Below, piece by piece: positions 1 through 18,667 of a stretch of DNA of 64,000 nucleotides. A program made the position numbers and the translations under genes. How positions within the stretch are numbered: position 1 is the first letter of the stretch; each line of letters begins with the position of its first letter. The stretch is from Escherichia coli (GTDB lineage Bacteria > Pseudomonadota > Gammaproteobacteria > Enterobacterales > Enterobacteriaceae): the NCBI RefSeq assembly GCF_003790525.1, contig NZ_CP033635.1; one strand, 5' to 3'. The notes below the pieces were generated by a model, which had not been told where the DNA came from, ran no database searches, and worked only from the letters and a program-made list of their open reading frames with translations.

Positions 1-1217
1 AAGGCGTTAATCTTCACGCCAGCAGGGGAATGAATGCTTATTCCGACGGGGAGTAGGGCGAGGAATGCCTGCGCCCACTGTGGATTTTTTTCGCGCAGGA
101 CGGCGTGATACCAGGCGCGCAGTAGCGCCTCCTGCCAGTCGGTTTTCCCGGCCCAGCGCAGCAGTTCAACGGGGGTAGCCTGCAGTTGCGTTTGCCACCA
201 GTCGAGCGGAACCGCTGCAACTATCTGATACAGCCACCATGCGCGCTGGCCCAACTTTTCGCCTTTGGGCTTAGTTTCTTCCAGCGCATCGGCCTTCCAC
301 TCTGGTAAGAACGCCTCCGGGGCATCAAGGGCGACGCGCAGCATTTTTTCTTTGCCGGATAAGCCTTTTAGCCTTTCAAGTAAGGTCTCAGGAGCGGGGG
401 ATGAACTGAGCAACGGCGCTAACCGAGACTTCATGCGCGAGATCCAGGCGCTTTCCGGCAGACAACACAGTAACCGTGCCGCAGTTTGCCGCACCTCTTT
501 GCTGCGATCGGATAATGTCTGTTCCAGAAAGGCTTCGTCGTGTTGGGAGATCCCCACTTCCAGCACAGCCAGCAGCTGTGCGCGTTCGCGGGCATCCAGC
601 GAACTCATCTCCTGCGCCAGCCGATCGCGACCCTGTTCCGGGGCGCGAATGCGCATTTGCGTCAGATATTGCAGACGCTGTTCGGACGTGCCGTGCAGCC
701 ACATTTCTTCATCCAGCGGAGCGTCAGTGGAGGCGAGAACATAGCCCCAATCGGCGTTGATTTGCGCCAGCCAGCACCCGCGAGCGCCCAGAACATTGGA
801 CAGGATGCCGCGTAGAGATGGCTTTTGCGCTCCATAATTCAGCAATGCTGGTAACAGCAGGGGCGGAGGAAGAAGTTGACGACGGACCAATAGATCAAGC
901 GCCGACCACAGCAACCGCGGCGGTCCTTCTGACAGCAGCAGATGCAGCAGTCCCGCAAAAGCCGGGTTGTTTATTGGCTCGGCATTTTCTTTATCGATTT
1001 CCGGCAGCGGTGCGGGGTCAATCGCCTGCGGCACCCAGCCAGCCAGATGGCAGAGCGCCAGAACGCCCGCCGAGCGCAGTAGCTGTTGCTCTGCGGATGT
1101 GTTATTCGCCAGTTCAGACAGTAACAGCCCAATCTCACTTTGCGACGCCGACGGTGTAAACGCTTTTTTGTCTGTGCCGAGTAGCGCTGTGCGGGTTAAA
1201 TTTTGCCATTCGTTCAT
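1..1217 (-). CDS. hypothetical protein, partial (>=405 aa, runs off window start); translationally coupled partner of the SWIM gene; not in ORF track
   Basis: Own reverse-strand translation from ATG at 1217..1215, which overlaps the SWIM stop TGA (1216..1214) as ATGA; GGAGG lies 6 nt upstream. Reads MNEWQNLTRTALLGTDKKAFTPSASQSEIGLLLSELANNTSAEQQLLRSAGVLALCHLAGW... with no stop down to position 1. Leu/Ala-rich, helical-looking. Confidence 0.6.
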   Translation of the reverse strand, partial: MNEWQNLTRTALLGTDKKAFTPSASQSEIGLLLSELANNTSAEQQLLRSAGVLALCHLAGWVPQAIDPAPLPEIDKENAEPINNPAFAGLLHLLLSEGPPRLLWSALDLLVRRQLLPPPLLLPALLNYGAQKPSLRGILSNVLGARGCWLAQINADWGYVLASTDAPLDEEMWLHGTSEQRLQYLTQMRIRAPEQGRDRLAQEMSSLDARERAQLLAVLEVGISQHDEAFLEQTLSDRSKEVRQTAARLLCCLPESAWISRMKSRLAPLLSSSPAPETLLERLKGLSGKEKMLRVALDAPEAFLPEWKADALEETKPKGEKLGQRAWWLYQIVAAVPLDWWQTQLQATPVELLRWAGKTDWQEALLRAWYHAVLREKNPQWAQAFLALLPVGISIHSPAGVKINA

Positions 1218-2536
1218 TGTGCGCCTCCGGTTGCCCAAATGACGCTACCGGCAAGCCAGGCGCTACAGGGCGTCAGCTGCTGACCATCCCATTCCCCCAT
1301 TAGCATAAACGGCGCGCCGCCGCTGGCCGCCAGTAACCGCCAACCCTCGTCCGACGACAGGTGCGTCGGTAAGTGCTGGCCCTGTGTCGAGACGAATCGC
1401 CAGCCGCTCTCGTGCGGGTAAATCAATATTTCGCTTACTCGCAGCGGCAGAGGCCATTGCCAGGGATTCGCGCTAAGCCGCTGCGCCATGTCATGCAGCG
1501 CGTCCGGGAGGGGTAATTCTGCAAGCGGGAATCTTTCACCGCGGGTAAACGGCTCCACAACCCGCGCCCGTAGCGGTGATGCGCCAGGGAAAAAGGCAAG
1601 CGCGCCCTGGCAGACTTGCCCGGTGATAAAGTGCTGGGGAAAGTTTTTACTACCGTGTGAATAGTCCAGCAGTAGCGCGGTGCGGTGGCTCTTTTCTCCG
1701 TACAGCCAGACCCGGCGTCGCCACAGATTATTCCCTTCTTGCGCGCTTTGACCTAAGACCTGCCAGTTATCGAGGCAGGTTAATCCGTCAGTGACGTCGT
1801 GTTTATCCGGGGGTATTCCCAATGCCGCATGGAGATCGCTAAGTTGTGCCGGGGATAACATTTGTTGCTGGCGCCAGGCGTCAATAATCAGCTGTAGCTG
1901 CCCCAGTTCTTTGCACAGGCTCGATGGCCATACCTCGGCGGTAGTAAAATGAGTGGTCAGATTGTTCAGGCGAGCGGCAATTCCCGGTAGTTGGGCGTCG
2001 ACCATGCGGGCGGCGATCCCGGCAAAAGGCAACTGTTGTGCAGAGATCTGCGCCAGACCGTGGCGGATCAGGTCGTGCATCCACTGTTCGAGGAAATCCA
2101 GCCCCGCCGTCATTTTTTGGTTGCGTGCCGCTTCCCGTTTGGCGGCAGCCTGCGGGTCGGCAGCTTTTGCCTCAGCCTGCTCTTTCTTCTCTTCTTTGCG
2201 AACCGCCCGCTGCTGGCGCGAGGTTAGCCACTCGCTTACCCATTCCGGCGGCTCGCCAGCGGTGAAACTTGCGGTGTGTTGCACCTGGAGAAAAAGCAAC
2301 GCAAGGCTATGTTTACAGGGGAATTTACGGCTGGGGCAGGAACATTTACAGGCCAGATCCTGTCTGTCGATTCGTACCTGATAAGGGCGGGAGCCGCTAC
2401 CTTTACACTCTCCCCAGAAGGCAGCCTCGCTATATCCGAGCGTCGGCCATTTTGCGGGAGCAACCAGGCCACGAGCCGCTTTAACCGAGGCGTCATCGGG
2501 CGCCAGGGCTTGCACTGATTCAACGGTCAGTTCCAT
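1214..2536 (-). CDS. SWIM zinc-finger domain protein, 440 aa, function unknown
   Basis: ORF-track protein carries a CxCxnCxH motif (CKCSCPSRKFPCKHSLALLF) typical of SWIM zinc fingers, followed by a charged linker (RKEEKKEQAEAKAADPQAAAKREAARNQ); no resemblance to GltF; GC-rich. Confidence 0.75.
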   Translation of the reverse strand: MELTVESVQALAPDDASVKAARGLVAPAKWPTLGYSEAAFWGECKGSGSRPYQVRIDRQDLACKCSCPSRKFPCKHSLALLFLQVQHTASFTAGEPPEWVSEWLTSRQQRAVRKEEKKEQAEAKAADPQAAAKREAARNQKMTAGLDFLEQWMHDLIRHGLAQISAQQLPFAGIAARMVDAQLPGIAARLNNLTTHFTTAEVWPSSLCKELGQLQLIIDAWRQQQMLSPAQLSDLHAALGIPPDKHDVTDGLTCLDNWQVLGQSAQEGNNLWRRRVWLYGEKSHRTALLLDYSHGSKNFPQHFITGQVCQGALAFFPGASPLRARVVEPFTRGERFPLAELPLPDALHDMAQRLSANPWQWPLPLRVSEILIYPHESGWRFVSTQGQHLPTHLSSDEGWRLLAASGGAPFMLMGEWDGQQLTPCSAWLAGSVIWATGGAQ

Positions 2537-2649
2537 TACAATTCTCTATTGGCGTGGGGAAATCGATGGGGTCAAGGAGGCGTTAAGCAAAGCAGGAGGA
2601 GACTGTTTTCCGTAACAGCGTATTGCGCGTCCATCGCAAATTTGTAGTG

Positions 2650-2679
2650 AGTATAGCGGGCGGTAAATTCAGGAAACAA
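2650..2679 (-). promoter_or_regulatory. candidate sigma70 promoter for the SWIM operon (-35 TTGTTT, 18-nt spacer, -10 TATACT on minus strand)
   Basis: Hexamers read on the reverse strand about 115 nt upstream of the SWIM start codon; motif match only. Confidence 0.3.
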
Positions 2680-2725
2680 TGGCGGATAGCGGAAAGTGTA
2701 GTTTTTCGGAAAAAGATAACTTTAT

Positions 2726-2758
2726 CCCGTGTAACCCGTTTTAAGCGGGCTACACGGG
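2726..2758 (-). terminator. hairpin immediately 3' of gltD (13-bp stem, one mismatch, 7-nt loop), followed on the transcript by a U-containing stretch
   Basis: Inverted repeat cccgtgtaacccg / cgggctacacggg 11 nt after the gltD stop; the U tract is interrupted. Confidence 0.4.
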
Positions 2759-2768
2759 AGGCTGCAAT

Positions 2769-4199
<1,431 letters not shown>

Positions 4200-7100
4200 T
4201 TACTGCGCCTGCACGCGCAACTCTGCTGCGCTACGACTACGGTGACCCAGCAGTGCTTTTACATCACTGGACTTCGGTTTAACCAGCGCGAATTTCGTGG
4301 CGAAGGTTGACCAGTTCGCCAGAATCTCTTCACCGCGCTGGGAACCGGTATGCTGCACATGCTCGGTGATAAGACCACGCAGATGCTCTTCATGGATCGC
4401 CAAATCGTCAACGCTTAAGACCTCGACCAGTTCCGGGTTAACGCGTTTGCGGAAATCGCCGCTTTCATCGAGAACGTAAGCGAAGCCACCGGTCATGCCC
4501 GCGCCGAAGTTAACGCCGGTTTTACCCAGAATACAGACAATACCGCCCGTCATATATTCACAGCCGTTGTCGCCAATGCCTTCTACCACGGTGATAGCAC
4601 CGGAGTTACGTACGCCGAAACGTTCACCCGCGCGGCCTGCGGCATACAGACGACCTCCGGTCGCGCCATACAGGCAGGTGTTGCCGATAATGCTTGCTTC
4701 ATGGCTGCGGAAGGCTGAGCCAACCGGAGGACGAATGGCAATTAAGCCGCCCGCCATGCCTTTACCGACATAGTCGTTAGCATCGCCGGTCAGATACAGT
4801 TCCACGCCGCCCGCGTTCCACACACCGAAGCTCTGGCCTGCGGTGCCGTTGAAGTATGCTTTGATCGGATCGGCAGCCAGCCCCTGATCGCCGTGCGTCT
4901 GGGCGATATAGCCTGAAAGCGACGCGCCGACAGAACGATCGGTGTTGCGGATATCGAACCAGAAGGTTTTGCTCTGGCGTTCATCGACAAACGGTTTTGC
5001 CTGTTGCAGCAACTGCGCGTTCAGTAGGCCGTTATCAAACGGCGGGTTGTTTTCGGTGCAGTAGAGTGCCTTACCTGCATTTGGCTCGGCAGTTTCCAGC
5101 AGCTTCGACAGCGCCAGTTTCTGCTGTTTGGCGGTGAAACCGTCCAGCTCTTTCAGCAGGTCGGTGCGACCAATCAGATCCACCAGACGCGTTACCCCCA
5201 GCTGTGCCATCAGCTCGCGGGTTTCACGGGCGATAAACTCAAAGTAATTAGTCACTTTGAACGGCAGGCCGTGATAGTGATTCTTACGCAGTTTGTCATC
5301 CTGAGTTGCTACACCCGTGGCGCAGTTGTTCAGGTGGCAAATTCGCAGATATTTACAGCCAAGCGCTACCATCGGGCCAGTGCCGAAGCCGAAGCTTTCT
5401 GCGCCGAGAATCGCCGCTTTGATGATATCAACGCCGGTTTTCAGGCCGCCATCAACCTGCAAACGGATCTTGTGACGCAAGCCGTTGGCAACCAGCGCCT
5501 GTTGGGTTTCAACAAGCCCCAGCTCCCACGGACAGCCTGCGTATTTCACCGATGAAAGCGGACTTGCGCCGGTGCCGCCGTCATAGCCTGCGATGGTGAT
5601 TAAATCGGCATAAGCTTTTGCCACGCCAGTCGCGATGGTGCCTACGCCCGGTTCGGAAACCAGCTTCACGGAGATCATCGCTTTTGGATTGACCTGCTTG
5701 AGGTCGAAAATCAGCTGCGCTAAATCCTCAATAGAGTAGATATCGTGGTGCGGCGGCGGGGAGATCAGCGTCACGCCCGGCACCGAATAGCGCAGTTTGG
5801 CAATGTAAGGAGTGACTTTATCACCCGGTAACTGACCACCTTCACCCGGCTTCGCGCCCTGGGCGACTTTTATCTGAATGACGTCGGCATTGACCAGGTA
5901 CGCCGGAGTAACGCCGAAGCGACCGGACGCCACCTGCTTGATGCGCGACACTTTGTTAGTGCCATAGCGCGCCGGGTCTTCACCGCCTTCGCCGGAGTTT
6001 GAGTTACCGCCGATGCTGTTCATCGCTTCCGCCAGCGCCTCGTGGGCTTCCGGGCTTAACGCGCCGATAGACATCGCGGCGGTATCGAAGCGTTTAAACA
6101 GTTCGCTTGCCGGTTCAACATCGGCAATGTTGACTGCGTTTTCACCCGGCGTAATTGCCAGCAGATCGCGCAGCGTGGTTGCCGGACGCTCATTAACCAG
6201 CTTCGCGTATTCCTGATAGTCGCTATACTCGCCGCTCTGTACCGCCTGTTGCAGCGTGCGCACCACGTCCGGGTTGTAGGCGTGGTATTCGCCGCCGTGC
6301 ACGTATTTCAGCAGGCCGCCCTGGCTGATGGGCTTACGCGCCAGCCAGGCACGTTTCGACAGATTCAGCAGATCCTGCTGGAAGTCTTCAAAGCTAGCCC
6401 CCCCAATGCGGCTAACCGCCCCCTGGAAGCACAGGCCCACGACATCATCGTGCAGACCGACCGCTTCAAACAGTTTCGAGCAGCGGTAAGAGGCGATGGT
6501 GGAGATGCCCATTTTGGACATGATTTTGTACAAGCCTTTGTTGATGCCGTTACGATAGTTGAGCATCACGGTACGATAATCTTTGGCAATCGCGTGGGTG
6601 TCTACCAGACGGCCCAGCGTTTCATAGGCAAGGTACGGATAAATAGCCGTCGCGCCGAAACCCAGCAACACGGCGAAGTGGTGCGGATCACGGGCGCTGG
6701 CGGTTTCGACGATGATGTTGGCATCGCAACGCAGGCTTTGATCGACCAGACGGGTCTGGATCGCGCCAACCGCCATCGGAGCCGGAACCGGCAGGCGATC
6801 TTTAGCGATATTCCGGTCGGAGAGCACCAGCAGTACGGTGCCGCTACGTACCATTTTTTCGGCTTTGTCGCACAGTTCTTTCACCGTCGCTTCGAGCGTG
6901 GTTTTAGTGACGTCAAAGGTGATATCCAGCGTATCTGCGCGGTAGTGATCCTCTTTCATCGTCGTGAGCTGTTTGAAATCGGAATAGAGCAGAATCGGCG
7001 ATTTAAAGCTTAAACGGTGCGCCTGGCCTTCTGCTTCGCAGAAGACGTTCATTTCGCGGCCAATGCTGGTGGCGAGCGACATAACATGCGCTTCACGCAG

Positions 7101-8660
7101 CGGGTCGATTGGCGGGTTAGTCACCTGGGCAAATTGCTGGCGGAAGTAGTCGTAAATAATGCGCGGCTGACTGGAGAGCACGGCGAATGGGGTGTCGTCG
7201 CCCATCGAACCGACCGCTTCCTGACCGTTTTCACCCAGTACGCGGATCACCGAATCCAGCTCTTCCGCGCTGTAGTTAAATTGTTTCTGGTAGCTGGCAA
7301 GCGTGTCGTCGTCCAGTTCGCGGCTACCCACTTCTTCATCGGGCAGATCTTCAAACGGTACCAGACGGCGGACGTTTTTCTCCATCCACTCTTTATAAGG
7401 GTGGCGGCTTTTCAGATCGTCATCGGTTTCTGCCGAGTGCAGAATACGCCCACTGCGGGTGTCGATCACCATCAGTTCGCCTGGCCCCACGCGGCCTTTT
7501 TCGACCACTTCGTCAGGCTGATAATCCCAGATACCGACTTCAGAGGCGCAGGTAATGAGCTTATCTTTGGTGATGACATAGCGTGCCGGACGCAGACCGT
7601 TACGGTCGAGGTTACAGGCGGCAAAACGACCGTCAGACATCACGATGCCTGCCGGGCCATCCCACGGCTCCATATGCATGGAGTTAAAGTCAAAGAAGGC
7701 ACGCAGTTCCGGGTCCATATCCGGGTTGTTCTGCCAGGCGGGTGGCACTAACAGACGCATGGCGCGGATGATATCCATCCCGCCTGCCAGCAGCAGTTCC
7801 AGCATGTTATCCATGGAACTGGAGTCAGAGCCGGTTTCGTTGACGAACGGCGCGGCGTCGTGCAGGTCAGGGATCAGCGGCGTCTGGAATTTATAGGTAC
7901 GCGCACGCGCCCATTGGCGGTTACCAGTGATGGTGTTGATTTCACCGTTATGCGCGAGGTAGCGGAACGGCTGTGCCAGCGGCCAGCGCGGTACGGTGTT
8001 AGTGGAAAAGCGCTGGTGGAACAGGCAAATGGCCGATTCCAGACGCAGGTCCGCAAGATCCAGATAAAAGCGCGGCAGATCCGCCGGCATACACAGACCT
8101 TTATAGATGTTCACCAGATTCGACAGGCTACAGACGTAGAAGTCTTTGTCGGCTTCGAGACGCTTTTCAATGCGGCGGCGGGCGATAAACAGACGGCGCT
8201 CCATATCGCGTGGACGCCAGCCTGCCGGGGCGTTCACAAAAATTTGCTCAATGCGTGGCAGAGAGGAGAGGGCGATTTCACCCAGCACGCCTTCGTTAGT
8301 GGGGACATCACGCCAGCCCACAATCGACAATGTTTCGCGTTGCAGCTCTTCTTCAACGATGCGGCGTGCGGCAGCGGCGAGTTCAGGATCTTTATTCAGG
8401 AAGAGCATCCCGACAGCGTAGTTTTTTGCTAAACGCCAGCCGCGCTCCTGCGCAACGATGCGAAAAAAGCGATCCGGTTTTTGTAACAGCAAGCCGCAAC
8501 CGTCACCGGTTTTACCATCGGCGAGAATCGCGCCACGGTGCTGCATGCGGGCCAGTGCGTGTATTGCAGTACGCACTACCTTGTGGCTAGGTTCGCCTTC
8601 TATGTGGGCGATCAGGCCGAAACCACAGTTATCCCTCTCAAGGGATTTATCGTACAACAT
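4200..8660 (-). CDS. gltB: glutamate synthase large subunit (1486 aa; ORF-track N-terminal extension trimmed by 36 codons)
   Basis: ORF 4200..8768 contains MLYDKSLERDNCGFGLIAHIEGEPSHK..., the GltB N-terminus; the amidotransferase Cys follows the start. Confidence 0.93.
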   Translation of the reverse strand: MLYDKSLERDNCGFGLIAHIEGEPSHKVVRTAIHALARMQHRGAILADGKTGDGCGLLLQKPDRFFRIVAQERGWRLAKNYAVGMLFLNKDPELAAAARRIVEEELQRETLSIVGWRDVPTNEGVLGEIALSSLPRIEQIFVNAPAGWRPRDMERRLFIARRRIEKRLEADKDFYVCSLSNLVNIYKGLCMPADLPRFYLDLADLRLESAICLFHQRFSTNTVPRWPLAQPFRYLAHNGEINTITGNRQWARARTYKFQTPLIPDLHDAAPFVNETGSDSSSMDNMLELLLAGGMDIIRAMRLLVPPAWQNNPDMDPELRAFFDFNSMHMEPWDGPAGIVMSDGRFAACNLDRNGLRPARYVITKDKLITCASEVGIWDYQPDEVVEKGRVGPGELMVIDTRSGRILHSAETDDDLKSRHPYKEWMEKNVRRLVPFEDLPDEEVGSRELDDDTLASYQKQFNYSAEELDSVIRVLGENGQEAVGSMGDDTPFAVLSSQPRIIYDYFRQQFAQVTNPPIDPLREAHVMSLATSIGREMNVFCEAEGQAHRLSFKSPILLYSDFKQLTTMKEDHYRADTLDITFDVTKTTLEATVKELCDKAEKMVRSGTVLLVLSDRNIAKDRLPVPAPMAVGAIQTRLVDQSLRCDANIIVETASARDPHHFAVLLGFGATAIYPYLAYETLGRLVDTHAIAKDYRTVMLNYRNGINKGLYKIMSKMGISTIASYRCSKLFEAVGLHDDVVGLCFQGAVSRIGGASFEDFQQDLLNLSKRAWLARKPISQGGLLKYVHGGEYHAYNPDVVRTLQQAVQSGEYSDYQEYAKLVNERPATTLRDLLAITPGENAVNIADVEPASELFKRFDTAAMSIGALSPEAHEALAEAMNSIGGNSNSGEGGEDPARYGTNKVSRIKQVASGRFGVTPAYLVNADVIQIKVAQGAKPGEGGQLPGDKVTPYIAKLRYSVPGVTLISPPPHHDIYSIEDLAQLIFDLKQVNPKAMISVKLVSEPGVGTIATGVAKAYADLITIAGYDGGTGASPLSSVKYAGCPWELGLVETQQALVANGLRHKIRLQVDGGLKTGVDIIKAAILGAESFGFGTGPMVALGCKYLRICHLNNCATGVATQDDKLRKNHYHGLPFKVTNYFEFIARETRELMAQLGVTRLVDLIGRTDLLKELDGFTAKQQKLALSKLLETAEPNAGKALYCTENNPPFDNGLLNAQLLQQAKPFVDERQSKTFWFDIRNTDRSVGASLSGYIAQTHGDQGLAADPIKAYFNGTAGQSFGVWNAGGVELYLTGDANDYVGKGMAGGLIAIRPPVGSAFRSHEASIIGNTCLYGATGGRLYAAGRAGERFGVRNSGAITVVEGIGDNGCEYMTGGIVCILGKTGVNFGAGMTGGFAYVLDESGDFRKRVNPELVEVLSVDDLAIHEEHLRGLITEHVQHTGSQRGEEILANWSTFATKFALVKPKSSDVKALLGHRSRSAAELRVQAQ

Positions 8661-9333
8661 ATCGTGAACCTCCCCCAGGCTCTGCGGGAACCCCACTTCC
8701 GAACCGCTGCGCACGGGCACAGAAAGAGCGTGGCGACGGGGTTTGCGTGTCATACGCGCACCTCGCATTCGCCCCCTTGTTGTCCTTTTCGCATCGGTTA
8801 ATACGGTGAAGAGGGGATCTCAATTACTGCATAAATATGATGAGCAGGCTGCTCATCCAGAAAGCTTCCAGCGGATTTCCAACTTATCGGGAAAGCTGAT
8901 ACAGGTCAAATGGCAAGCTTATTGGTACAGAAATGTGCTTTAGCGCAAAATTCTTTATTAATTGTCTGAAATTAAAGTGGATTTTCTATTTAAGGCTAAA
9001 AGGGCGTCGTTAGAGAAACAGTCAATTCCTGACTGTCATAAAGGCGTGTTAACCCTTATCCTGCCTTGAACTGACGAGAAAACCAGCATTTTATACTGCC
9101 TTAATTGGTAATAACGTTTCATGCTACTGTTTTTGCCTAAAATCCATAAGGAGATAAAAAAATCTGACACAAGATAAGCAAAAGTGATTTATGTGATTGT
9201 GCATGAAATTTCGGTAATTTTGATTGATTATGCAGTTGATAAAAGCAGGCCGGGACGATTGATCCAGGTCATCGCCGAATTGAGCTAAAAATGGCAGGCT
9301 TTGGCCTCTTTTCAAGGCGCGGTCTATCAGATT
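8661..9333. promoter_or_regulatory. AT-rich divergent gltB / yhcC control region
   Basis: About 670 bp non-coding, AT-rich; known in E. coli to carry the gltBD promoter with Lrp/IHF/CRP sites; individual sites not mapped here. Confidence 0.45.
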
Positions 9334-10263
9334 ATGCAGTTACAGAAATTAGTCAATATGTTTGGTGGTGATCTCACCCGTCGTTATGGGCAAAAGGTGC
9401 ATAAGCTGACGCTGCACGGCGGTTTTAGCTGCCCTAACCGTGACGGTACCATCGGGCGTGGTGGCTGCACATTCTGTAATGTGGCCTCGTTTGCCGATGA
9501 AGCGCAGCAGCATCGTTCCATTGCCGAGCAACTGGCGCACCAGGCGAATTTAGTTAACCGCGCTAAACGCTATCTGGCCTACTTTCAGGCGTATACCAGC
9601 ACCTTTGCGGAAGTTCAGGTGCTGCGTTCTATGTATCAGCAGGCGGTGAGCCAGGCCAATATTGTCGGTTTGTGTGTTGGTACCCGCCCGGACTGCGTGC
9701 CGGATGCGGTGCTGGATCTGCTTTGCGAATATAAGGACCAGGGTTACGAAGTGTGGCTGGAGCTGGGGCTACAAACCGCCCACGACAAAACGCTGCATCG
9801 CATCAATCGCGGTCATGATTTTGCCTGTTATCAGCGCACGACGCAGCTGGCGCGTGAGCGTGGGCTGAAGGTGTGTTCTCACTTAATTGTCGGCCTGCCT
9901 GGCGAAGGGCAGGCTGAATGTTTGCAAACGCTGGAGCGAGTCGTTGAAACTGGCGTGGACGGCATAAAGCTGCATCCGCTGCATATTGTGAAAGGCAGCA
10001 TTATGGCGAAAGCCTGGGAAGCGGGGCGTTTGAACGGTATTGAACTGGAAGATTACACGCTCACTGCCGGAGAAATGATTCGCCATACGCCACCGGAAGT
10101 GATCTACCACCGCATTTCCGCCAGCGCCCGTCGCCCGACGCTGCTTGCTCCTCTGTGGTGCGAAAATCGCTGGACGGGAATGGTCGAGCTGGATCGTTAT
10201 CTGAATGAACATGGCGTACAGGGATCGGCGCTGGGACGTCCGTGGCTACCTCCAACGGCGTAG
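9334..10263 (+). CDS. yhcC: radical SAM family protein YhcC
   Basis: ORF contains MQLQKLVNMFGGDLTRRYGQKVHKLTLHGGFSCPNRDGTIGRGGCTFC (Cys-rich radical-SAM-like motif). Confidence 0.85.
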   Translation: MQLQKLVNMFGGDLTRRYGQKVHKLTLHGGFSCPNRDGTIGRGGCTFCNVASFADEAQQHRSIAEQLAHQANLVNRAKRYLAYFQAYTSTFAEVQVLRSMYQQAVSQANIVGLCVGTRPDCVPDAVLDLLCEYKDQGYEVWLELGLQTAHDKTLHRINRGHDFACYQRTTQLARERGLKVCSHLIVGLPGEGQAECLQTLERVVETGVDGIKLHPLHIVKGSIMAKAWEAGRLNGIELEDYTLTAGEMIRHTPPEVIYHRISASARRPTLLAPLWCENRWTGMVELDRYLNEHGVQGSALGRPWLPPTA

Positions 10264-10358
10264 GCCATTGAGGGGAATTCCGCATTTCTCACACAATTTA
10301 TAACGTAACTGTCAGAATTGGGTATTATTGGGGCAGGTTGTCGTGAAGGAATTCCCTA

Positions 10359-12695
10359 ATGAAGCAAATTCGTCTGCTGGCGCAGTATTATGTTGACCTG
10401 ATGATGAAGTTAGGTCTGGTGCGCTTCTCAATGTTGCTGGCGCTGGCCCTCGTCGTTCTTGCCATTGTGGTACAAATGGCGGTAACCATGGTGCTGCATG
10501 GTCAGGTCGAAAGCATTGATGTTATTCGTTCTATCTTCTTTGGTTTGCTGATTACGCCGTGGGCGGTCTACTTTCTATCGGTGGTCGTCGAGCAACTGGA
10601 GGAGTCACGGCAACGTCTGTCACGACTGGTGCAAAAACTGGAGGAGATGCGCGAGCGCGATTTGAGCCTCAACGTTCAGTTAAAAGATAATATTGCCCAG
10701 CTAAATCAGGAAATCGCCGTTCGTGAAAAAGCGGAAGCAGAACTGCAGGAAACCTTCGGCCAACTGAAAATTGAAATCAAAGAGCGCGAAGAGACACAAA
10801 TTCAGCTCGAGCAGCAATCCTCATTCTTACGTTCCTTCCTTGATGCTTCACCCGACCTGGTTTTTTATCGTAACGAAGATAAAGAGTTTTCCGGCTGTAA
10901 CCGCGCGATGGAGCTGCTGACCGGAAAAAGCGAAAAACAACTGGTTCACCTGAAACCTGCTGATGTTTACTCACCGGAAGCCGCCGCAAAAGTCATTGAA
11001 ACCGATGAAAAAGTGTTCCGTCATAATGTGTCACTGACCTATGAACAGTGGCTGGATTACCCGGACGGGCGCAAAGCCTGCTTTGAAATCCGTAAAGTGC
11101 CGTACTACGACCGCGTGGGTAAACGTCACGGTTTGATGGGCTTTGGTCGCGACATTACCGAGCGTAAGCGGTATCAGGATGCGCTTGAACGGGCCAGCCG
11201 CGACAAAACGACGTTTATCTCCACCATCAGTCACGAATTGCGTACGCCGCTGAATGGTATCGTCGGCCTGAGCCGCATTCTGCTGGATACCGAACTCACC
11301 GCCGAGCAGGAAAAATATCTCAAAACCATCCATGTTTCGGCCGTCACGCTGGGGAATATCTTCAACGATATTATCGACATGGATAAGATGGAACGGCGCA
11401 AGGTCCAGCTTGATAATCAGCCGGTTGATTTCACCAGCTTCCTTGCCGATCTGGAAAATCTCTCCGCCTTGCAGGCGCAACAAAAAGGATTGCGCTTTAA
11501 CCTGGAGCCTACGCTGCCATTACCGCATCAGGTCATTACCGACGGGACGCGTTTACGGCAGATCCTGTGGAACCTCATCAGTAACGCCGTCAAATTCACC
11601 CAGCAAGGCCAGGTTACCGTGCGCGTGCGCTACGATGAAGGCGATATGCTGCATTTTGAAGTGGAAGATTCCGGCATTGGCATTCCGCAGGATGAGCTGG
11701 ATAAAATTTTCGCCATGTATTACCAGGTGAAAGACAGTCATGGCGGTAAACCTGCCACCGGCACCGGTATTGGTCTGGCCGTTTCTCGTCGTCTGGCGAA
11801 AAATATGGGCGGCGATATTACGGTTACCAGCGAACAGGGCAAAGGTTCAACCTTTACGTTGACGATCCACGCACCGTCGGTGGCAGAAGAGGTCGATGAT
11901 GCGTTTGATGAAGACGATATGCCTTTACCGGCGCTGAATGTACTGCTGGTGGAAGACATTGAACTGAACGTGATTGTCGCGCGTTCTGTGCTGGAAAAAT
12001 TAGGTAACAGCGTTGATGTCGCCATGACCGGCAAGGCGGCGCTGGAGATGTTTAAACCGGGCGAATACGACCTGGTATTGCTGGATATTCAGTTGCCAGA
12101 TATGACCGGGCTGGATATCTCTCGTGAACTGACGAAGCGTTATCCGCGCGAGGATTTACCACCGCTGGTGGCCTTAACCGCTAACGTGCTGAAAGACAAA
12201 CAAGAGTACCTCAATGCTGGAATGGATGATGTGCTGAGTAAGCCGCTTTCTGTTCCGGCGCTAACCGCGATGATCAAGAAATTCTGGGATACCCAGGATG
12301 ATGAGGAGAGTACGGTGACGACAGAAGAGAACAGTAAATCAGAAGCATTGCTCGATATTCCCATGCTGGAACAGTATCTCGAACTTGTAGGACCGAAGCT
12401 GATCACCGACGGGTTAGCGGTATTTGAGAAGATGATGCCGGGATATGTTAGCGTGCTGGAGTCGAATCTGACGGCGCAGGATAAAAAAGGCATTGTTGAG
12501 GAAGGACATAAAATTAAAGGTGCGGCGGGGTCAGTGGGGTTACGCCATCTGCAACAGTTGGGTCAGCAAATTCAGTCTCCTGACCTTCCCGCCTGGGAAG
12601 ATAACGTCGGTGAATGGATTGAAGAGATGAAAGAAGAGTGGCGTCACGACGTAGAAGTACTGAAAGCGTGGGTGGCAAAAGCTACTAAAAAATGA
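10359..12695 (+). CDS. arcB: aerobic respiration control sensor histidine kinase ArcB
   Basis: 778-aa ORF with HisKA motif (STISHELRTPLNGI), receiver and HPt domains. Confidence 0.97.
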   Translation: MKQIRLLAQYYVDLMMKLGLVRFSMLLALALVVLAIVVQMAVTMVLHGQVESIDVIRSIFFGLLITPWAVYFLSVVVEQLEESRQRLSRLVQKLEEMRERDLSLNVQLKDNIAQLNQEIAVREKAEAELQETFGQLKIEIKEREETQIQLEQQSSFLRSFLDASPDLVFYRNEDKEFSGCNRAMELLTGKSEKQLVHLKPADVYSPEAAAKVIETDEKVFRHNVSLTYEQWLDYPDGRKACFEIRKVPYYDRVGKRHGLMGFGRDITERKRYQDALERASRDKTTFISTISHELRTPLNGIVGLSRILLDTELTAEQEKYLKTIHVSAVTLGNIFNDIIDMDKMERRKVQLDNQPVDFTSFLADLENLSALQAQQKGLRFNLEPTLPLPHQVITDGTRLRQILWNLISNAVKFTQQGQVTVRVRYDEGDMLHFEVEDSGIGIPQDELDKIFAMYYQVKDSHGGKPATGTGIGLAVSRRLAKNMGGDITVTSEQGKGSTFTLTIHAPSVAEEVDDAFDEDDMPLPALNVLLVEDIELNVIVARSVLEKLGNSVDVAMTGKAALEMFKPGEYDLVLLDIQLPDMTGLDISRELTKRYPREDLPPLVALTANVLKDKQEYLNAGMDDVLSKPLSVPALTAMIKKFWDTQDDEESTVTTEENSKSEALLDIPMLEQYLELVGPKLITDGLAVFEKMMPGYVSVLESNLTAQDKKGIVEEGHKIKGAAGSVGLRHLQQLGQQIQSPDLPAWEDNVGEWIEEMKEEWRHDVEVLKAWVAKATKK

Positions 12696-12807
12696 CCCCG
12701 GCTAGACCGGGGTGCGCGAATACTGCGCCAACACCAGGGAAATCTTGGCTGCGCCGTAAATTATTATGATGAGTTACAAGGGCACAGCACTGTTTTTCAG
12801 GCCGCAC
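12687..12807 (-). ncRNA. arcZ: small RNA ArcZ (RyhA/SraH), 121 nt, overlapping the arcB 3' end
   Basis: Reverse strand reads GTGCGGCCTGAAAAACAGTGCTGTGCCC...CACCCCGGTCTAGCCGGGGTCATTTTTT, matching the ArcZ sequence as I remember it, including its terminator hairpin. Confidence 0.85.
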
Positions 12808-12924
12808 GCAGTTAAGATAGCAAAACTTAAATGATTTGTTACATGAATCAGTTAAATGTGTGATGCGTAGCATTTTTATTAAAAAAATTAATGTGTTTCA
12901 GTCAATTGCGAAAGGATGATCACA

Positions 12925-13578
12925 ATGAAGAAAATTGGCGTAATTCTGAGCGGATGCGGCGTCTATGACGGTTCTGAAATTCATGAAGCGGTGTTGACGT
13001 TGTTAGCTATTTCACGCAGCGGTGCGCAGGCGGTCTGCTTTGCACCGGATAAGCAGCAGGTTGATGTAATCAATCATTTAACTGGCGAAGCGATGCCGGA
13101 AACGCGCAATGTGCTGATTGAAGCGGCACGAATAACGCGTGGTGAGATCCGCCCTCTGGCCCAGGCCGATGCCGCTGAGCTGGATGCGTTGATTGTGCCG
13201 GGGGGGTTTGGTGCGGCGAAGAATTTAAGCAACTTTGCCCGTCTGGGGAGTGAATGCACCGTTGACCGTGAATTAAAGGCGCTGGCACAAGCGATGCATC
13301 AGGCCGGAAAACCGCTTGGTTTTATGTGTATTGCCCCGGCGATGCTGCCGAAAATTTTCGATTTCCCGCTGCGTTTGACCATCGGTACTGATATTGATAC
13401 CGCAGAAGTGCTGGAAGAGATGGGCGCGGAGCATGTGCCGTGTCCTGTCGATGATATCGTGGTTGATGAAGACAATAAGATTGTCACCACCCCTGCATAT
13501 ATGCTGGCGCAGAACATTGCAGAAGCGGCGAGCGGCATTGATAAGCTGGTTTCCCGCGTGCTGGTCCTGGCGGAATGA
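12925..13578 (+). CDS. elbB: DJ-1/PfpI-like protein ElbB
   Basis: [30 protein letters not shown]..., 217 aa. Confidence 0.9.
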
Positions 13579-14303
13579 GTAAAAGCCGCTTAACGGTGTT
13601 TAGTTTCGTTCGCCGTTTTCTTCTGCGGTTAATGGTTGTCCTCGCCGTTTTCTGGGGCGGGGGCATCGCGTTGTTTAGCGTTGCGCCTGTTCCCTTCTCA
13701 GCGGTAATGGTTGAGCGGCAAGTCAGCGCCTGGCTGCATGGCAATTTTCGTTACGTGGCACATTCTGACTGGGTCAGTATGGATCAAATCTCGCCGTGGA
13801 TGGGACTGGCGGTGATTGCCGCAGAAGATCAGAAATTTCCTGAGCACTGGGGCTTTGATGTCGCTTCCATTGAGCAAGCCCTGGCGCACAACGAACGCAA
13901 TGAAAACCGTATTCGCGGTGCGTCAACGATTTCTCAGCAGACAGCCAAAAATCTCTTTTTATGGGATGGGCGCAGCTGGGTTCGAAAAGGGCTGGAAGCC
14001 GGATTAACGCTGGGGATAGAAACGGTCTGGAGCAAAAAGCGTATCCTGACGGTTTACCTGAATATCGCCGAATTTGGCGACGGTGTGTTTGGCGTCGAAG
14101 CTGCGGCACAACGTTATTTCCACAAACCCGCGAGCAAGCTTACCCGGTCGGAAGCTGCATTACTGGCAGCTGTATTACCTAATCCACTTCGTTTCAAAGT
14201 CTCCGCGCCATCGGGCTACGTGCGTAGCCGTCAGGCGTGGATTTTACGGCAGATGTATCAGTTAGGCGGTGAGCCGTTTATGCAACAACACCAGCTTGAT
14301 TAA
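13575..14303 (+). CDS. mtgA: monofunctional peptidoglycan glycosyltransferase
   Basis: 242-aa ORF with transglycosylase motifs ([16 protein letters not shown]); 4-nt overlap with the elbB stop. Confidence 0.93.
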
Positions 14304-14932
14304 GCTTCGCGCGAAGTGAGGGCCAGCGTTTTGCTCTCACGAGGTTGCAGATCTTTCTGCAGGGCAATAGCCAGCGCCGGTTGGGCGATAAATCGTTTCC
14401 ACAACCGCTCTTGCTTACGCAGACAACACCACTTCGACCAGGTCGCCAGTGGAATCAATGTGCTTTCACCAATGTTGTCGCAGACGACGGGGATAACCTC
14501 TGACTCACTGATGCGATGACAAAGGATATTCTGCGGCTTCAGCGACATCGTCACGATACGGTTATCCTGTAAATAACGCTTCAGCTGTTTCAGTAGCTGG
14601 CGCAGTTGTGCAATGTCTTCTTCGTAACGGCATTGTTCAGCAAATTCGGTCAGCGTAATGGAGGGCTTGCCGTCAAAATCTGCAATCACATCGTAGACAT
14701 AACCGGTTCCGCAATCCGTCTCAACGGTACCGTGATAGCGCGGTATTCCACTCCAGTCTTTTAACCGGCGACCAAGATGCGCGTAGTACTTTAACTCACG
14801 GCGGATCTCTTTATCGCCACCATCGCCACGATGGTAGACAATCTTGATACAGCGTTGGGCATCTTCCGGATGCGCATAACATTTCCGATGTCTTCCGGTG
14901 CCCAGGGGACTTTGTTCAGATAAGCGAATCAT
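14300..14932 (-). CDS. yrbL: PhoP-regulated protein YrbL (210 aa; ORF-track start trimmed)
   Basis: ORF contains [28 protein letters not shown]... Confidence 0.85.
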
Positions 14933-14982
14933 GCCATCTCCTGGAAATATTTTCTGACGATCTCCAGTATGGTCGATTAACT

Positions 14983-14999
14983 TAAACAAAACCTAAACA
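14983..14999 (-). promoter_or_regulatory. PhoP box (TGTTTA-N5-TGTTTA direct repeat) upstream of yrbL
   Basis: Reverse strand reads TGTTTAGGTTTTGTTTA about 50 bp upstream of the yrbL start. Confidence 0.55.
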
Positions 15000-15145
15000 A
15001 TGCCTCTTAAGGTTTTCTTAAGGTTCTTCTGAAAGTAAAAAGCGCACAAAATGTACAAATGACGTTGATTGAGAACGATTTCAGTACGTGATTTTCTTAT
15101 TGTCGGGGGGAGTTTGAAGGGAGTTGTATGTCAAAGTGATGAAGA

Positions 15146-15418
15146 TTAATCTTCATCAAAACCAGAATTAAAGAGGGCGATAACGGCGGCCAGTGCTTCC
15201 TCTTCCTGTGGACCGGTCGCTTCAACTTCAATCTGCCGTCCTTTGGCAGAATCCAACATCAGCAGCGCAATAACGCTGTTGGCTTCAGCCTCGGTGCCTT
15301 CGTCATTACGTAACAGCACTTCAGCGTCAAAACCTTGCATTAATTCAAACAGCTTCATTGCAGGCCGGGCATGCATGCCCAGCTTGTTTGTGATTTCAAC
15401 AGTTTGCTTGACGGTCAT
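15146..15418 (-). CDS. npr: phosphocarrier protein NPr
   Basis: 90-aa [29 protein letters not shown]... Confidence 0.93.
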
Positions 15419-16269
15419 GGTTTACGTTTTTCCAGCGTACGATGGCGTGACTGGACGTTTTTACCGCGCGAGCGGAAGTAGTCAGCCAGTTGCTCTGCAA
15501 TATACACCGAACGGTGCTTCCCGCCGGTACAACCAATGGCGACCGTCAGGTAGCTACGGTTGTTGGTTTCCAGCATAGGTAACCATAGCTCAAGATAGCT
15601 TCGCGTCTGGTAGATAAAATTGTGTACTTCTGTGTGGCGGTCGAGGAACGCGGCGACAGGCTTATCCAGACCTGTCATTGGACGCAGTTTCGGATCCCAG
15701 TGCGGGTTCGGCAAGAAGCGCACGTCAAAGACGTAATCTGCATCGATAGGGATACCGTGTTTGAAGCCGAAAGACTCAAAGACCATGGTCAGTTCGCGTT
15801 CACGTTTACCCAGCAGACGGGTACGCAGCATTTCAGCCAGCTCGTGAACGGACATTTCTGAGGTATCGACAATCAGATCCGCTCGCGAACGCAGAGGCTC
15901 CAGCAAATCGCTTTCTTTGTCGATAGCACTTTCCAGCGACAGGTTTTTGCTGGAAAGCGGATGCAGTCGGCGCGTGTCACTGTAACGACGAATTAAGGTA
16001 TTACGGTCGGCATCCAGGAACAGTAGTTGCGGTGAGAAAGCGTCAGGCAGGTTACTCATCGCCTGTTCGAATATTTCTGGTGACTCCGGCATATTACGAA
16101 CATCAATGCTGACGGCGGCAGAAATCTCGCGATCGGCCAGAGTTCGAGCCAGATCGGGTAACAACACTACGGGAAGGTTATCCACGCAGTAAAAACCCAT
16201 ATCTTCCAGCGCACGCAGGGCGACAGATTTACCTGAACCTGAACGTCCGCTGACGATCATCAGTACCAT
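15415..16269 (-). CDS. rapZ: RNase adaptor protein RapZ
   Basis: 284-aa ORF with P-loop GRSGSGKS. Confidence 0.95.
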
Positions 16270-16314
16270 GTACTGTTTCTCCTCACAACGTCTAAAAGAG
16301 ACATTACCGAATAA

Positions 16315-16806
16315 CTACGCTTCATCCGGAGTACCTTCGGTATCCGTAATGATTTGATACAGCTCTTCATCGCTCTGGGCTGCGCGTAAACGGCGGCAGA
16401 TGGTTTTGTCCGCCAGACGTTTCGCCACCAGTGACAGAGTATGCAGGTGCGTTTTAGTTTGGTCTGCCGGCACCAGCAGGGCAAAAAGTAAATCCACCGG
16501 TTGGTTGTCGATGGCATCGAAAGCTATAGGCGTTTCGAGCTGAACGAAAACGCCAACGGCGCGCAGAGTATCTTCTTCCAGTTTGCCATGCGGAATGGCA
16601 ATACCATTGCCGATACCGGTACTGCCCATTTTTTCCCGCGTCAGGATAGCTTCAAAAACCACCTGAGGCGGCAGGCTAAGTTGTTTCGCCGCCAGCTCGC
16701 TGATGATTTCCAGGGCGCGTTTTTTGCTCTGACAGTGGACGCGGCTTCGCGTACATTCCCTGTTAAGAACACTGCTAAGCTGTAGAGTTGTATCATTATT
16801 TGTCAT
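16315..16806 (-). CDS. ptsN: nitrogen-related PTS protein EIIA-Ntr
   Basis: ORF contains MTNNDTTLQLSSVLNRECTRSRVHCQSKK..., 163 aa. Confidence 0.93.
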   Translation of the reverse strand: MTNNDTTLQLSSVLNRECTRSRVHCQSKKRALEIISELAAKQLSLPPQVVFEAILTREKMGSTGIGNGIAIPHGKLEEDTLRAVGVFVQLETPIAFDAIDNQPVDLLFALLVPADQTKTHLHTLSLVAKRLADKTICRRLRAAQSDEELYQIITDTEGTPDEA

Positions 16807-17233: not shown

Positions 17234-18667
17234 TCAAACGAGCTGTTTACGCTGGTTTGACGGCGGAATGGATAAAGACTCTCGGTACTTCGCAACAGTG
17301 CGGCGTGCCACCATGATACCTTGTTCCGACAGCAAAGAGGTTAACTTGCTGTCGCTCAACGGTTTCGCTGGGTTTTCCGCCGCGATTAATTTCTTCACCA
17401 GCGCACGAATCGCCGTGGAGGAAGCTTCGCCGCCGCCCTCGGTATTGACGTGACTGGAAAAGAAATACTTCAGTTCAAAAATGCCTCGTGGACTATGCAG
17501 GTATTTTTGCGTGGTCACGCGAGATATCGTCGATTCATGCATTTCGACAGCCTGGGCGATATCGGCCAGTACCATCGGTTTCATATATTCTTCACCTTGC
17601 TCAAAGAAGGCCTGCTGCTGTTCAACGATACAGCGACTCACGCGCAGTAGCGTATCGTTACGGCTTTCCAGACTCTTGATCAACCATTTGGCATCCTGCA
17701 GATTGCTGCGGATAAACTGGCTGTCACCATCGTTGCGCGCGTTATTGCACATCGAGGCGTAGTGCTGGTTGATTTGCAGACGCGGAATGCTGTCACTGTT
17801 GAGTTCTACCGTCCAGTGACCGTTATGCTTACGCACCAGCACATCTGGAATGACATACTCAGGTTCGCCAGTCTGGATCGACTGCCCGGGGCGCGGATCG
17901 AGCGACTGGATCAGATTGACGGCTTCTTTCAGCACATCTTCTTTCAGACGCGTGACGCGCATTAAAGTGCGGAAGTCGTGATTGGCTAACAGATCGAGAT
18001 GATCGCTAATAATCAGTCTGGCCTCTTCCAGCCACGGCGTGGTTTTATCGAATTGGGAGAGTTGGATCAGCAGACAGTCACGCAGATCTTTTGCCGCCAC
18101 ACCGACTGGATCAAACCGTTGGATCCGCTTAAGGACGGCTTCAACTTCGTCGATGTCAATCTCTTCATCGCCCATACTTTCGAGAATATCTTCCAGCGGG
18201 ACAGTCAGATAACCGGTGTCATCAACGGCATCGACGATAGAGGTAGCAATAGCGCGGTCAGTGTCGGAAAACGGTGTCAGCTCGACCTGCCACATCAGGT
18301 AATCCTGCAAGGTCTGCGTCGTTTCGCCCTGATAGACCGGCAGCTCGTCGTCAATGTAGTCACCGCTGGTGCCGGATGGTGTACCAGCGGTGTAAATGGT
18401 GTCCCAACTGGCATCGAGCGGCAGCTCTTCCGGCATCTCTTTTTGTTCGAGCGCGTCGGCGGTGTCCAGCGTTTCACTGTCTTGCGTTTCGCGGGTGTCG
18501 ATTTCTTCATGAGTGTCGATTTGCTCAAGCAGCGGATTACTCTCCAGCGCCTGCTGTAGCTCCTGCTGAAGTTCCAGCGTCGACAACTGCAACAGACGAA
18601 TTGCCTGTTGGAGCTGTGGCGTCATCGCCAGTTGTTGGCTAAGCCTGAGTTGCAAACCTTGCTTCAT
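17234..18667 (-). CDS. rpoN: RNA polymerase sigma-54 factor
   Basis: 477-aa [36 protein letters not shown]... with C-terminal RpoN box ([10 protein letters not shown]). Confidence 0.97.

Follow-up and report, generated by a model that had tools for sequence, protein, structure and literature searches.

The window analysed here, a 64,000-nt stretch of DNA, is a 100% match to E. coli SMS-3-5 (NC_010498.1) by genome comparison. The features that concern us all lie on the minus strand, and the genes around the 3ʹ end of gltD are arranged as follows:

4200-8768, minus strand: gltB
2769-4187, minus strand: gltD
2771-2769, minus strand: the TAA stop codon of gltD, exactly where homology to K-12-type and “empty-site” E. 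coli stops
2537-2768, minus strand: the 232-nt spacer between gltD and the SWIM gene
1214-2536, minus strand: a SWIM zinc-finger gene, the first gene of a five-gene module, with an identical start in RefSeq

A DUF5691 gene follows the SWIM gene and extends beyond the left end of the window, as does the rest of the module. In the annotated SMS-3-5 genome the gltD-nanQ interval is taken up by the module, and Pfam matches and RefSeq names give the gene order as SWIM, DUF5691, AAA_5 ATPase, DUF5682 and VWA. The same interval in K-12 contains gltF-yhcA-yhcD-yhcE-yhcF-yhcG.

The boundary between shared and haplotype-specific DNA is sharp. The gltD end of our query is matched in 5404 of 5426 complete E. 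coli genomes, and the match spans the spacer in only 33, the genomes that carry a module of this type. In the other 5371, alignment is found only from query position 370, equivalent to window position 2769, where the stop codon ends. When the spacer was used by itself in a sensitive search, the 33 spacer-bearing genomes were recovered again, each with an identity of at least 99.6%, and no others among the 5426. The first-pass annotation had proposed aligning this spacer with the K-12 gltD-gltF spacer as a way to place the replacement breakpoint. That alignment has no homology from the first base past the stop, and the whole spacer belongs to the SWIM-module haplotype. The K-12 spacer is 559 nt long, AT-rich and unrelated to that of SMS-3-5; in a direct comparison with K-12, the only homologous parts were gltD and what lies beyond it, nanQ, and a 126-nt remnant of yhcG. 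In strain WP4-S17-ESBL-03, nanQ and gltD are convergent and only 67 nt apart, and those 67 nt retain the K-12-type hairpin described below. Since this hairpin is found also in the empty state, we assign it to the gltD 3ʹ end that is common in E. coli; the hairpin of SMS-3-5 is a property of the module haplotype. Hence, the gltD-nanQ interval has at least three states in E. coli: empty, occupied by the gltF-yhc fimbrial genes, or occupied by the SWIM module. Apart from nanQ and the yhcG remnant, the module haplotype has no sequence in common with the K-12 haplotype downstream of the gltD stop codon.

PADLOC assigned no significant family to the five module proteins, and a literature search with DUF5691/DUF5682 and with SWIM+MoxR+VWA found no papers. 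No integrase or transposase is annotated beside it. The only other E. coli match to the module ATPase gene is yehL (68.5% over 165 nt).

The order gltB-gltD-module-nanQ is also found in two further Escherichia lineages, here called L003 and L006, and in Klebsiella huaxiensis. These relatives were found by protein search, contig look-ups and one metagenome match. The SWIM protein of L003 is 90% identical to that of SMS-3-5, and the DNA of the two lineages is uniformly 92.5% identical over the 17.6 kb from the module to arcB. K. huaxiensis is more distant (SWIM protein 68% and gltD DNA 84.8% identical to SMS-3-5), and its gltD-SWIM spacer is 784 nt long and includes a yhcG pseudogene. A metagenome search with a conserved 29-mer at the coding start returned one contig, whose spacer is identical to the L003 type. 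The accessible data thus contain four distinct spacers. An initial contig search with a single SWIM protein found no relatives. An alignment-based contig search found 80 loci, all with at most 53% identity, none enterobacterial and none adjoining gltD; for these reasons they could not be used for spacer alignment. The contexts of distant modules (at most 55% identity) are unrelated: some follow DUF1871 and DUF218 genes, for instance, and their upstream DNA is unrelated too. By eye, the regions upstream of two modules with 54–55% identity (L007 and L009) have no similarity to the leader described below. Because its distant homologues sit in unrelated contexts, the module does not depend on gltBD as such.

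The spacer is far less diverged than its surroundings. Among the three Escherichia lineages it differs by 2.2–4.7%, compared with 13–16% at third codon positions of the SWIM gene and 21% at those of gltD. The deficit is seen in all three pairwise comparisons, with P from 4e-6 to 1e-11, and between SMS-3-5 and L003 there are no differences at all in 2537-2644. From the contrast between 2–5% in the spacer and 13–21% at flanking third codon positions we conclude that the spacer is under constraint. Part of the low divergence could instead reflect recombination, a point to which we return.

The half of the spacer nearest gltD contains a very stable stem-loop, followed by RNA of unusual composition:

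2725-2759, minus strand: stem-loop of 14 bp with a 7-nt loop and no U tract, the proposed 3ʹ-end structure of the gltBD mRNA
2638-2715, minus strand: C-rich, G-poor sense RNA (25 C and 7 G in 78 nt), a candidate Rho loading region
2548-2625, minus strand: a second C-rich, G-poor stretch (29 C and 11 G in 78 nt), just 5ʹ of the SWIM start

The stem begins 10 nt after the gltD stop codon. Its arms, CCCGUGUAGCCCG (2758-2746) and CGGGUUACACGGG (2738-2726), enclose the loop CUUAAAA and form 13 pairs, one of them a G.U on the gltD-sense strand; the flanking pair U2759-A2725 brings the stem to 14 bp, nine of which are G-C. An earlier description of this element as a 13-bp hairpin at 2726-2758, after the gltD stop, thus had the coordinates right and lacked only the flanking U-A pair. 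The predicted folding energy in a 40-nt window is -26.7 kcal/mol. For comparison, the 63,960 windows of this size that cover the 64 kb on both strands average -7.4 (sd 3.6); the hairpin ties for the most stable 40-nt fold in the window and is far beyond chance. Folding is better on the gltD-sense strand than on the antisense strand (-26.7 vs -24.5), and the hairpin dominates the centroid structure of the entire spacer. Two short open reading frames in this region are basic-rich, as judged from their translations: one of 49 aa on the plus strand (2623-2772), which overlaps the hairpin, and one of 81 aa on the minus strand (2722-2967), which overlaps gltD out of frame.

Canonical intrinsic termination requires a U tract. 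We defined an intrinsic terminator as a GC-rich stem-loop just 3ʹ of a stop codon followed by at least 5 U in 8 nt, beginning 0–2 nt past the stem. The stem-loop is GC-rich and correctly placed. However, there is no U tract directly 3ʹ of the stem, where the tail reads AUAAAGUUAUCUUUUUCC, nor anywhere within 9 nt of it (AUAAAGUUA): only 3 of the first 9 tail nucleotides are U. The nearest run of five U lies 13 nt past the stem and is broken in L003 and L006. A terminator scan of both strands did not call the hairpin. Since it lacks a U tract, the hairpin is not a canonical intrinsic terminator, and the term “terminator-like”, used in the first-pass annotation, is only partly supported: it suits the stem but not the class, and is better replaced by “stable 3ʹ-end hairpin without a U tract”. 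Conservation of the stem is pronounced. All 35 hairpin positions are the same in SMS-3-5 and L003, where ~5–7 changes would be expected at the third-codon-position rate (20.9% differences in gltD and 15.6% in SWIM; P = 0.003). The single change in L006, U to C at 2734 on the sense strand, converts the G.U pair to G-C.

Other gltD genes are followed by hairpins of their own. That of K-12, GAATTCGCCAGAC-TGT-GTCTGGCGAATC, has a folding energy of -17.9 kcal/mol, and that of K. huaxiensis has a 9-bp outer stem and a folding energy of -27.3 kcal/mol. Both lie 10–13 nt past the gltD stop and lack a U tract, and they are unrelated in sequence. Published Term-seq data for K-12 place a “primary” gltD 3ʹ end at 3360660 (Adams et al. 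2021, eLife, PMC7815308, supplementary file 1), on one tab only, which from its place in the file appears to be that for M63-glucose; going by the printed sequence, this end is 1–3 nt after the K-12 stem. The same study reports a bicyclomycin-sensitive Rho region with its peak at 3361307 in early gltF, ~40 nt into the gene (score 4.1, p = 2e-16; PMC7815308, supplementary file 2). Because the K-12 and K. huaxiensis hairpins occupy the same spot, and because the K-12 hairpin coincides with a Term-seq end, we consider that the SMS-3-5 hairpin is most likely the 3ʹ-end structure of the gltBD mRNA. The occurrence of unrelated hairpins at the same position after the stop codon in different haplotypes is consistent with selection for a defined gltBD 3ʹ end.

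A gltBDF operon is a textbook premise, and gltF had been described as normally co-expressed with gltBD by read-through. The K-12 data temper this premise: the main gltD end precedes gltF, a Rho region lies within gltF, and gltF has its own promoter-like site, matching consensus at 10 of 12 positions. Co-expression by read-through is thus a weaker proposition than it was made out to be.

The RNA beyond the SMS-3-5 hairpin resembles a Rho substrate. When every 78-nt window on either strand of the 64-kb window is ranked by its excess of C over G, both C-rich stretches fall at the 99.8th percentile. The first stretch may act as a Rho loading region on gltBD transcripts that read through the hairpin. 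With so much C and so little G past the hairpin, transcription may read through into the SWIM gene but probably does so only to a limited extent. The junction has two traits of the 3ʹ-protective hairpin of an mRNA that is terminated by Rho or processed, namely a stable stem near the stop codon without a U tract, and rut-like RNA downstream.

What, then, would transcribe the module? The spacer contains one candidate promoter directed towards the SWIM gene:

2703-2711, minus strand: TTCCGAAAA block, invariant between Escherichia and K. huaxiensis, at about -60 to -68 from the predicted start
2674-2679, minus strand: candidate -35, TTGTTT (3/6), not conserved in K. huaxiensis (TTACCG)
2650-2655, minus strand: candidate -10, TATACT (5/6, with A at -11 and T at -7), within the conserved block CCGnTATACTC
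2640-2646, minus strand: predicted transcription start zone, with A 2643 lying 7 nt past the -10 and a leader of ~107 nt, placed from the position of the -10 only

The hexamers are 18 nt apart and together match consensus at 8 of 12 positions, which is below the threshold of a promoter-scanning tool, so that the site was not listed. The -10 is close to TATAAT and has the A at position 2 and the T at position 6 that are expected for σ70; the -35 falls short of the four matches to TTGACA that we required at a spacing of 16–18 nt, and there is no TGn extended -10. Scored with a position-weight matrix built from published base frequencies, the site reaches 10.6 bits and is the best in the spacer; only 21 of 639,720 combinations of position and spacing in the 64-kb window score as high. 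The spacer is T- and C-rich, and 11.4% of 2000 dinucleotide shuffles of it reach the same score (p ~0.11). Hence, the promoter is plausible but, by this measure, not beyond chance.

Comparison between lineages adds to this picture. The site is the highest-scoring in all three Escherichia spacer variants, and the homologous position is second best in K. huaxiensis. None of the 13 variable sites in the Escherichia spacers is within either hexamer. Between Escherichia and K. huaxiensis, CCGnTATACTC is invariant, whereas the -35 region is at random identity (5/20). The upstream limit of the homology between these spacers is TTCCGAAAA, a possible site for an activator or of UP type. The base at -13 is C in Escherichia, giving CTATACT, the form of -10 preferred by σS, and A in K. 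huaxiensis. The proposal of a plausible σ70 promoter at these coordinates (TTGTTT at 2679-2674, 18 nt, TATACT at 2655-2650) therefore holds in its positions and in its -10, which is good and conserved across genera, but is weakened by the poor, unconserved -35 and by the shuffles. Given a good -10 and a poor -35, the promoter is probably weak or dependent on an activator, and the conserved TATACT, upstream block and leader fit a real promoter that is weak or factor-dependent. We put a transcription start at 2640-2646 at about even odds. A stronger promoter-like site in K. huaxiensis, TTGACC-16-TATTAT (10/12), is located ~620 nt upstream of the SWIM start, before the yhcG pseudogene, and could feed the module there instead. 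By eye, no convincing or conserved motif for σ54, σE or σ28 was found in the spacer, and the same is true of other -10/-35 pairs in the conserved leader block and of ArgR-type half sites. A Nac-type ATA-N9-TAT at 2710-2724 occurs in L003 and L006, but SMS-3-5 has ATA-N9-TTT and K. huaxiensis lacks the motif; we regard it as a chance match.

Downstream of the predicted start, conservation is concentrated in a few elements:

2572-2634, minus strand: an upstream ORF of 20 codons that starts at the conserved ATGGA block (2634-2630)
2582-2616, minus strand: an imperfect inverted repeat, GTTACGGAAAACAG-N7-CTGCTTTGCTTAAC, the most conserved block of the leader, with conserved arms and a variable centre
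2534-2547, minus strand: a weak Shine-Dalgarno-like AGAGAA (2547-2542) and the SWIM start codon, ATG (2536-2534)
2447-2536, minus strand: SWIM codons 1–30, with low divergence at third codon positions

For this comparison, the 270 nt of the K. huaxiensis spacer closest to SWIM were aligned with the spacers from Escherichia. Identity between the Escherichia and K. huaxiensis leaders is 57% overall and is concentrated in blocks. The 35-nt repeat (2616-2582), which can also be written GTTAYGGAAAACAG-N7-CTGCTTTGnnTAAC, has 15–16 of 20 positions identical in each window relative to K. huaxiensis. It could be an RNA hairpin with a GGA near the loop, or a DNA operator. Three GGA motifs are conserved, by eye: at 2630-2632, at 2609-2611 and at 2533-2531, the last adjoining the start codon. 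K. huaxiensis has a 16-codon ORF that begins at the same ATG as the upstream ORF of SMS-3-5 and is read in a different frame; the peptide is therefore not conserved. No Shine-Dalgarno sequence precedes the upstream ORF at 2572-2634. Conservation across genera is also seen for CAAYAGAGAAWTGYAATG, which runs into the SWIM coding sequence. Third-position divergence between SMS-3-5 and K. huaxiensis is only 16.7% in the first 30 SWIM codons and 42–48% further in. Because this divergence is unusually low, we propose that constraint at the RNA level continues from the leader into the first 30 codons.

The leader folds no more stably than its shuffles (z = +0.47 and -0.60), and for this reason we do not claim a riboswitch-like element; single-sequence folds also disagree on the closing helix. 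RNAalifold predicts a leader structure in which all pairs form in 4/4 sequences, with three compensatory pairs, although the four sequences represent effectively two lineages. Shuffle and slide controls favour this structure, using the same four sequences as the prediction itself. A scan of 2300-3000 against Rfam 15, with E up to 10, gave two chance-level hits outside the spacer (E = 1.3 and 4). A covariance model of the leader, searched over 86 loci, had hits only on SWIM start codons, due to homology of the coding sequences. Overall, the -10, the central leader and the start of translation are the most constrained parts of the spacer, and the -35 is not constrained.

The functional steps that we infer from this arrangement form a simple sequence. 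The hairpin at 2725-2759 would set and protect the 3ʹ end of the gltBD mRNA, as a partial terminator and/or as a structure that protects against exonucleases. Polymerase that passes the hairpin would make untranslated, C-rich and G-poor RNA onto which Rho could load. Since Rho can load there, little gltBD transcription would be expected to reach the SWIM gene. The region from 2537 to ~2711 would then be the module's own upstream region, with a promoter of σ70/σS type starting near 2643, and the ~107-nt leader and first 30 codons, which are constrained in sequence, would probably carry post-transcriptional or operator control. That the hairpin defines or protects the gltBD 3ʹ end with Rho acting downstream, and that the module also has its own conserved promoter and leader region, is a joint proposal to which we give an even chance of being correct in full.

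An alternative is that the spacer has no active promoter, and the module is simply the distal part of the gltBD transcript. The hairpin would be a partial terminator or processing site, and the conserved leader blocks would be used for RNA processing and for translation initiation of SWIM. Retention of the gltD-SWIM linkage in three Escherichia lineages and in K. huaxiensis is consistent with this, a hairpin without a U tract may be leaky, and the promoter match is not significant alone and has an unconserved -35. Nonetheless, in K. huaxiensis such a transcript would have to cross 784 nt of untranslated RNA, including the yhcG pseudogene, between gltD and SWIM. Moreover, the RNA past the hairpin is strongly C-rich and G-poor, and Rho cuts the equivalent read-through in K-12; conservation of the -10 block across genera and the location of distant relatives of the module away from gltD also argue against exclusive read-through, which we consider unlikely. 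Conversely, the hairpin might be an efficient intrinsic terminator of non-canonical type, giving full insulation without Rho or 3ʹ-end trimming. A very stable GC-rich stem right after the stop codon, the recurrence of a hairpin at this position in three unrelated sequences, and a K-12 3ʹ end 1–3 nt from the stem would all be expected of such a terminator. Against this, the first 9 nt past the stem contain no U tract of the kind that canonical termination needs, the U5 run 13 nt downstream is lost in L003 and L006, and bicyclomycin-sensitive read-through is detected downstream in K-12; we consider a self-sufficient terminator quite unlikely.

Two further alternatives concern the origin of the spacer rather than its function. 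Low divergence could mark a recent recombination tract among Escherichia lineages, in which case the promoter-like and leader motifs would be due to chance. E. coli genomes are mosaic around variable loci, which counts in favour of this explanation, and SMS-3-5 and L003 are more alike than elsewhere (96.6–99.1% identity) across a single unbroken stretch, 2795-2448, that runs into both coding regions; gltBD is also more diverged from K-12 than are arcB and yhcC. However, the same deficit is found in all three pairwise comparisons of Escherichia, the only change in the hairpin preserves pairing, and the distant K. huaxiensis has independently kept the -10 block, the central leader block and the first 30 codons. 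We regard recombination as an improbable explanation for the pattern as a whole. The position of the hairpin, exactly at the border of haplotype-specific DNA, would also suit the end of a mobile or repeated element (REP-like, an integration site or a terminal inverted repeat) that delivered the module. This is very improbable: the hairpin is single-copy, occurring at one place per genome in 33 genomes and nowhere else among the 5426 E. coli genomes; by eye, the other end of the module has no matching repeat; at this locus K. huaxiensis carries the module but not the SMS-3-5 hairpin; and no integrase or transposase is annotated beside the module.

We also considered a more elaborate version of the favoured reading, in which the ~170 nt from 2537 to 2711 and the first 30 SWIM codons are a previously undescribed cis-regulatory unit, and the hairpins after gltD are selected as insulators. 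A weak promoter, dependent on an activator or on σS, would feed the leader, where the inverted repeat or hairpin, the GGA motifs, the upstream ORF and the C-rich tract would gate expression after initiation, for example by CsrA-type binding or by Rho-dependent attenuation. The differing hairpins after gltD would be kept because they insulate the nitrogen-regulated gltBD genes from the cargo of the gltD-nanQ hotspot. Taken jointly, these proposals are speculative and quite unlikely to hold in every part.

For the most part, we regard the junction as an ordinary operon boundary, and in that sense routine. Its value lies in providing a testable expression map for an uncharacterised yehLMPQ-like module, with a predicted gltBD 3ʹ end near 2722-2726, a predicted start near 2643, and a leader that is under constraint.

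How does the junction compare with known systems? The hairpin shares with canonical intrinsic terminators a GC-rich stem-loop right after a stop codon, but is without the U tract that defines the class. The K-12 gltD hairpin is closer, with the same position, a stable stem without a U tract, and a long untranslated spacer after it; the two differ in that the sequences are unrelated and SMS-3-5 has a longer stem, which is also much more stable (-26.7 vs -17.9 kcal/mol). The Term-seq end and the Rho-dependent region belong to the K-12 hairpin and are carried to SMS-3-5 by analogy only. In its stability, its nearness to the stop codon, its lack of a U tract and the C-rich, G-poor RNA that comes after it, the SMS-3-5 hairpin also resembles the stem-loops that stabilise Rho-dependent 3ʹ ends (Dar and Sorek 2018, NAR, PMC6061677); membership of that class would imply dependence on Rho and exonucleolytic trimming, and the SMS-3-5 hairpin is likened to it by its sequence features. 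The candidate promoter has the TATACT and the allowed 18-nt spacing of σ70/σS promoters with a good -10 and a degenerate -35, and the conserved block upstream lies where class I activators bind, near -64. It differs in having a -35 that is only 3/6 and unconserved, and the σS reading is not kept in K. huaxiensis. The module itself has the domain set of yehLMPQ in K-12 (AAA, DUF5682, vWA and SWIM; yehM, yehP and yehQ are annotated as DUF5682, vWA and SWIM, respectively), but the order AAA-DUF5682-VWA-SWIM is replaced by SWIM-DUF5691-AAA-DUF5682-VWA, the chromosomal site is different, and a separate DUF5691 gene is found in the SMS-3-5 module and not in yehLMPQ. Judged by this domain content, the module is evidently a permuted paralogue of yehLMPQ.

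In E. coli, the interval between gltD and nanQ is found in at least three states:

L097 (E. coli with nothing inserted), 8934-9000: empty state of 67 nt; nanQ and gltD are convergent, and a K-12-type hairpin is common to both.
L002 (K-12), 604-9000: K-12 state, gltF-yhcADEF-yhcG.
L001 (SMS-3-5), 7660-16369: SWIM-module state; the gltD-proximal end is window 1-2768.

The SWIM-module state is present in 33 of 5426 E. coli genomes, and the module occupies the same gltD-nanQ site in K. huaxiensis and in an Escherichia lineage of ~92.5% identity. From window 2769 to about 8100, which covers gltD and the greater part of gltB, identity to K-12 is 94-97%; across the 5ʹ end of gltB, yhcC and arcB (about 8170-11700) it is mostly 98-100%. 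Judged by these values, the gltD-gltB stretch resembles a divergent haplotype block of older origin adjoining the variable locus.

Loci carrying the module also retain pieces of yhcG, whose product is a DUF1016/PDDEXK nuclease. All of these remnants lie outside the window, as do two extra hypothetical ORFs in SMS-3-5:

L091 (K. huaxiensis), about 9382-9720, gltD orientation: C-terminal two-thirds of yhcG, between gltD and the SWIM gene.
L093 (a further Escherichia locus), about 17490-17711, and L001, about 8567-8692, gltD orientation: N-terminal piece of yhcG, after the VWA gene.
L001, 7788-8475, strand opposite gltD: ORFs of 190 and 48 aa, between nanQ and the yhcG remnant.

The remnant layout is the “wrong” way round for a simple insertion, and this suggests either two flanking copies of yhcG or independent events. 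The extra ORFs end in a canonical terminator (GGCCCGCCGCAGCGGG, with an A run before it on the gltD-sense strand). They apparently have no counterpart in the L093 lineage, where the gap between the VWA gene and nanQ is only ~320 nt.

How firmly is gltF itself attached to gltBD in K-12? A promoter-like site matching at 10 of 12 positions (TTTACA-16-TATACT; L002 8493-8520) lies ~50 nt upstream of the gltF start, and Rho-dependent termination peaks just within gltF, at genome coordinate 3361307 (PMC7815308). Together, these observations indicate that gltF may be less tightly tied to the gltBDF operon than the name implies.

Further features of the window concern the spacer, the start of the SWIM gene and a distant hairpin:

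Window 2710-2724, minus strand: ATA-N9-TTT in SMS-3-5, directly 3ʹ of the gltD hairpin.
Window 2572-2634, minus strand: upstream ORF of 20 codons, MDAQYAVTENSLLLLCLTPP, with a conserved ATG.
Window 31344-31422, minus strand: hairpin of -26.7 kcal/mol with a 17-bp stem, GGGGTGAGCGTGAT...ATCGCGCTCACC, and no U tract.

The distant hairpin equals the gltD hairpin in stability, both being -26.7 kcal/mol. At the first site, L003 and L006, two other Escherichia loci carrying the module, have ATA-N9-TAT, the Nac-type consensus; K. huaxiensis has no equivalent, and the match is probably due to chance. No Shine-Dalgarno sequence is visible for the 20-codon ORF, and in K. huaxiensis the same ATG opens a 16-codon ORF in another frame. 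Between SMS-3-5 and K. huaxiensis, third-position divergence is 16.7% in SWIM codons 1-30 (window 2447-2536) versus 42-48% in the remaining gene, and the opening 30 nt are identical (30/30); this combination points to RNA-level constraint at the SWIM translation start.

Elsewhere, the SMS-3-5 module has a permuted paralogue in yehLMPQ (AAA, DUF5682, vWA and SWIM; L098 6789-13293). Upstream of yehLMPQ lie yehK and two DUF4132 genes of very large size, yehI and a yehH-like gene.
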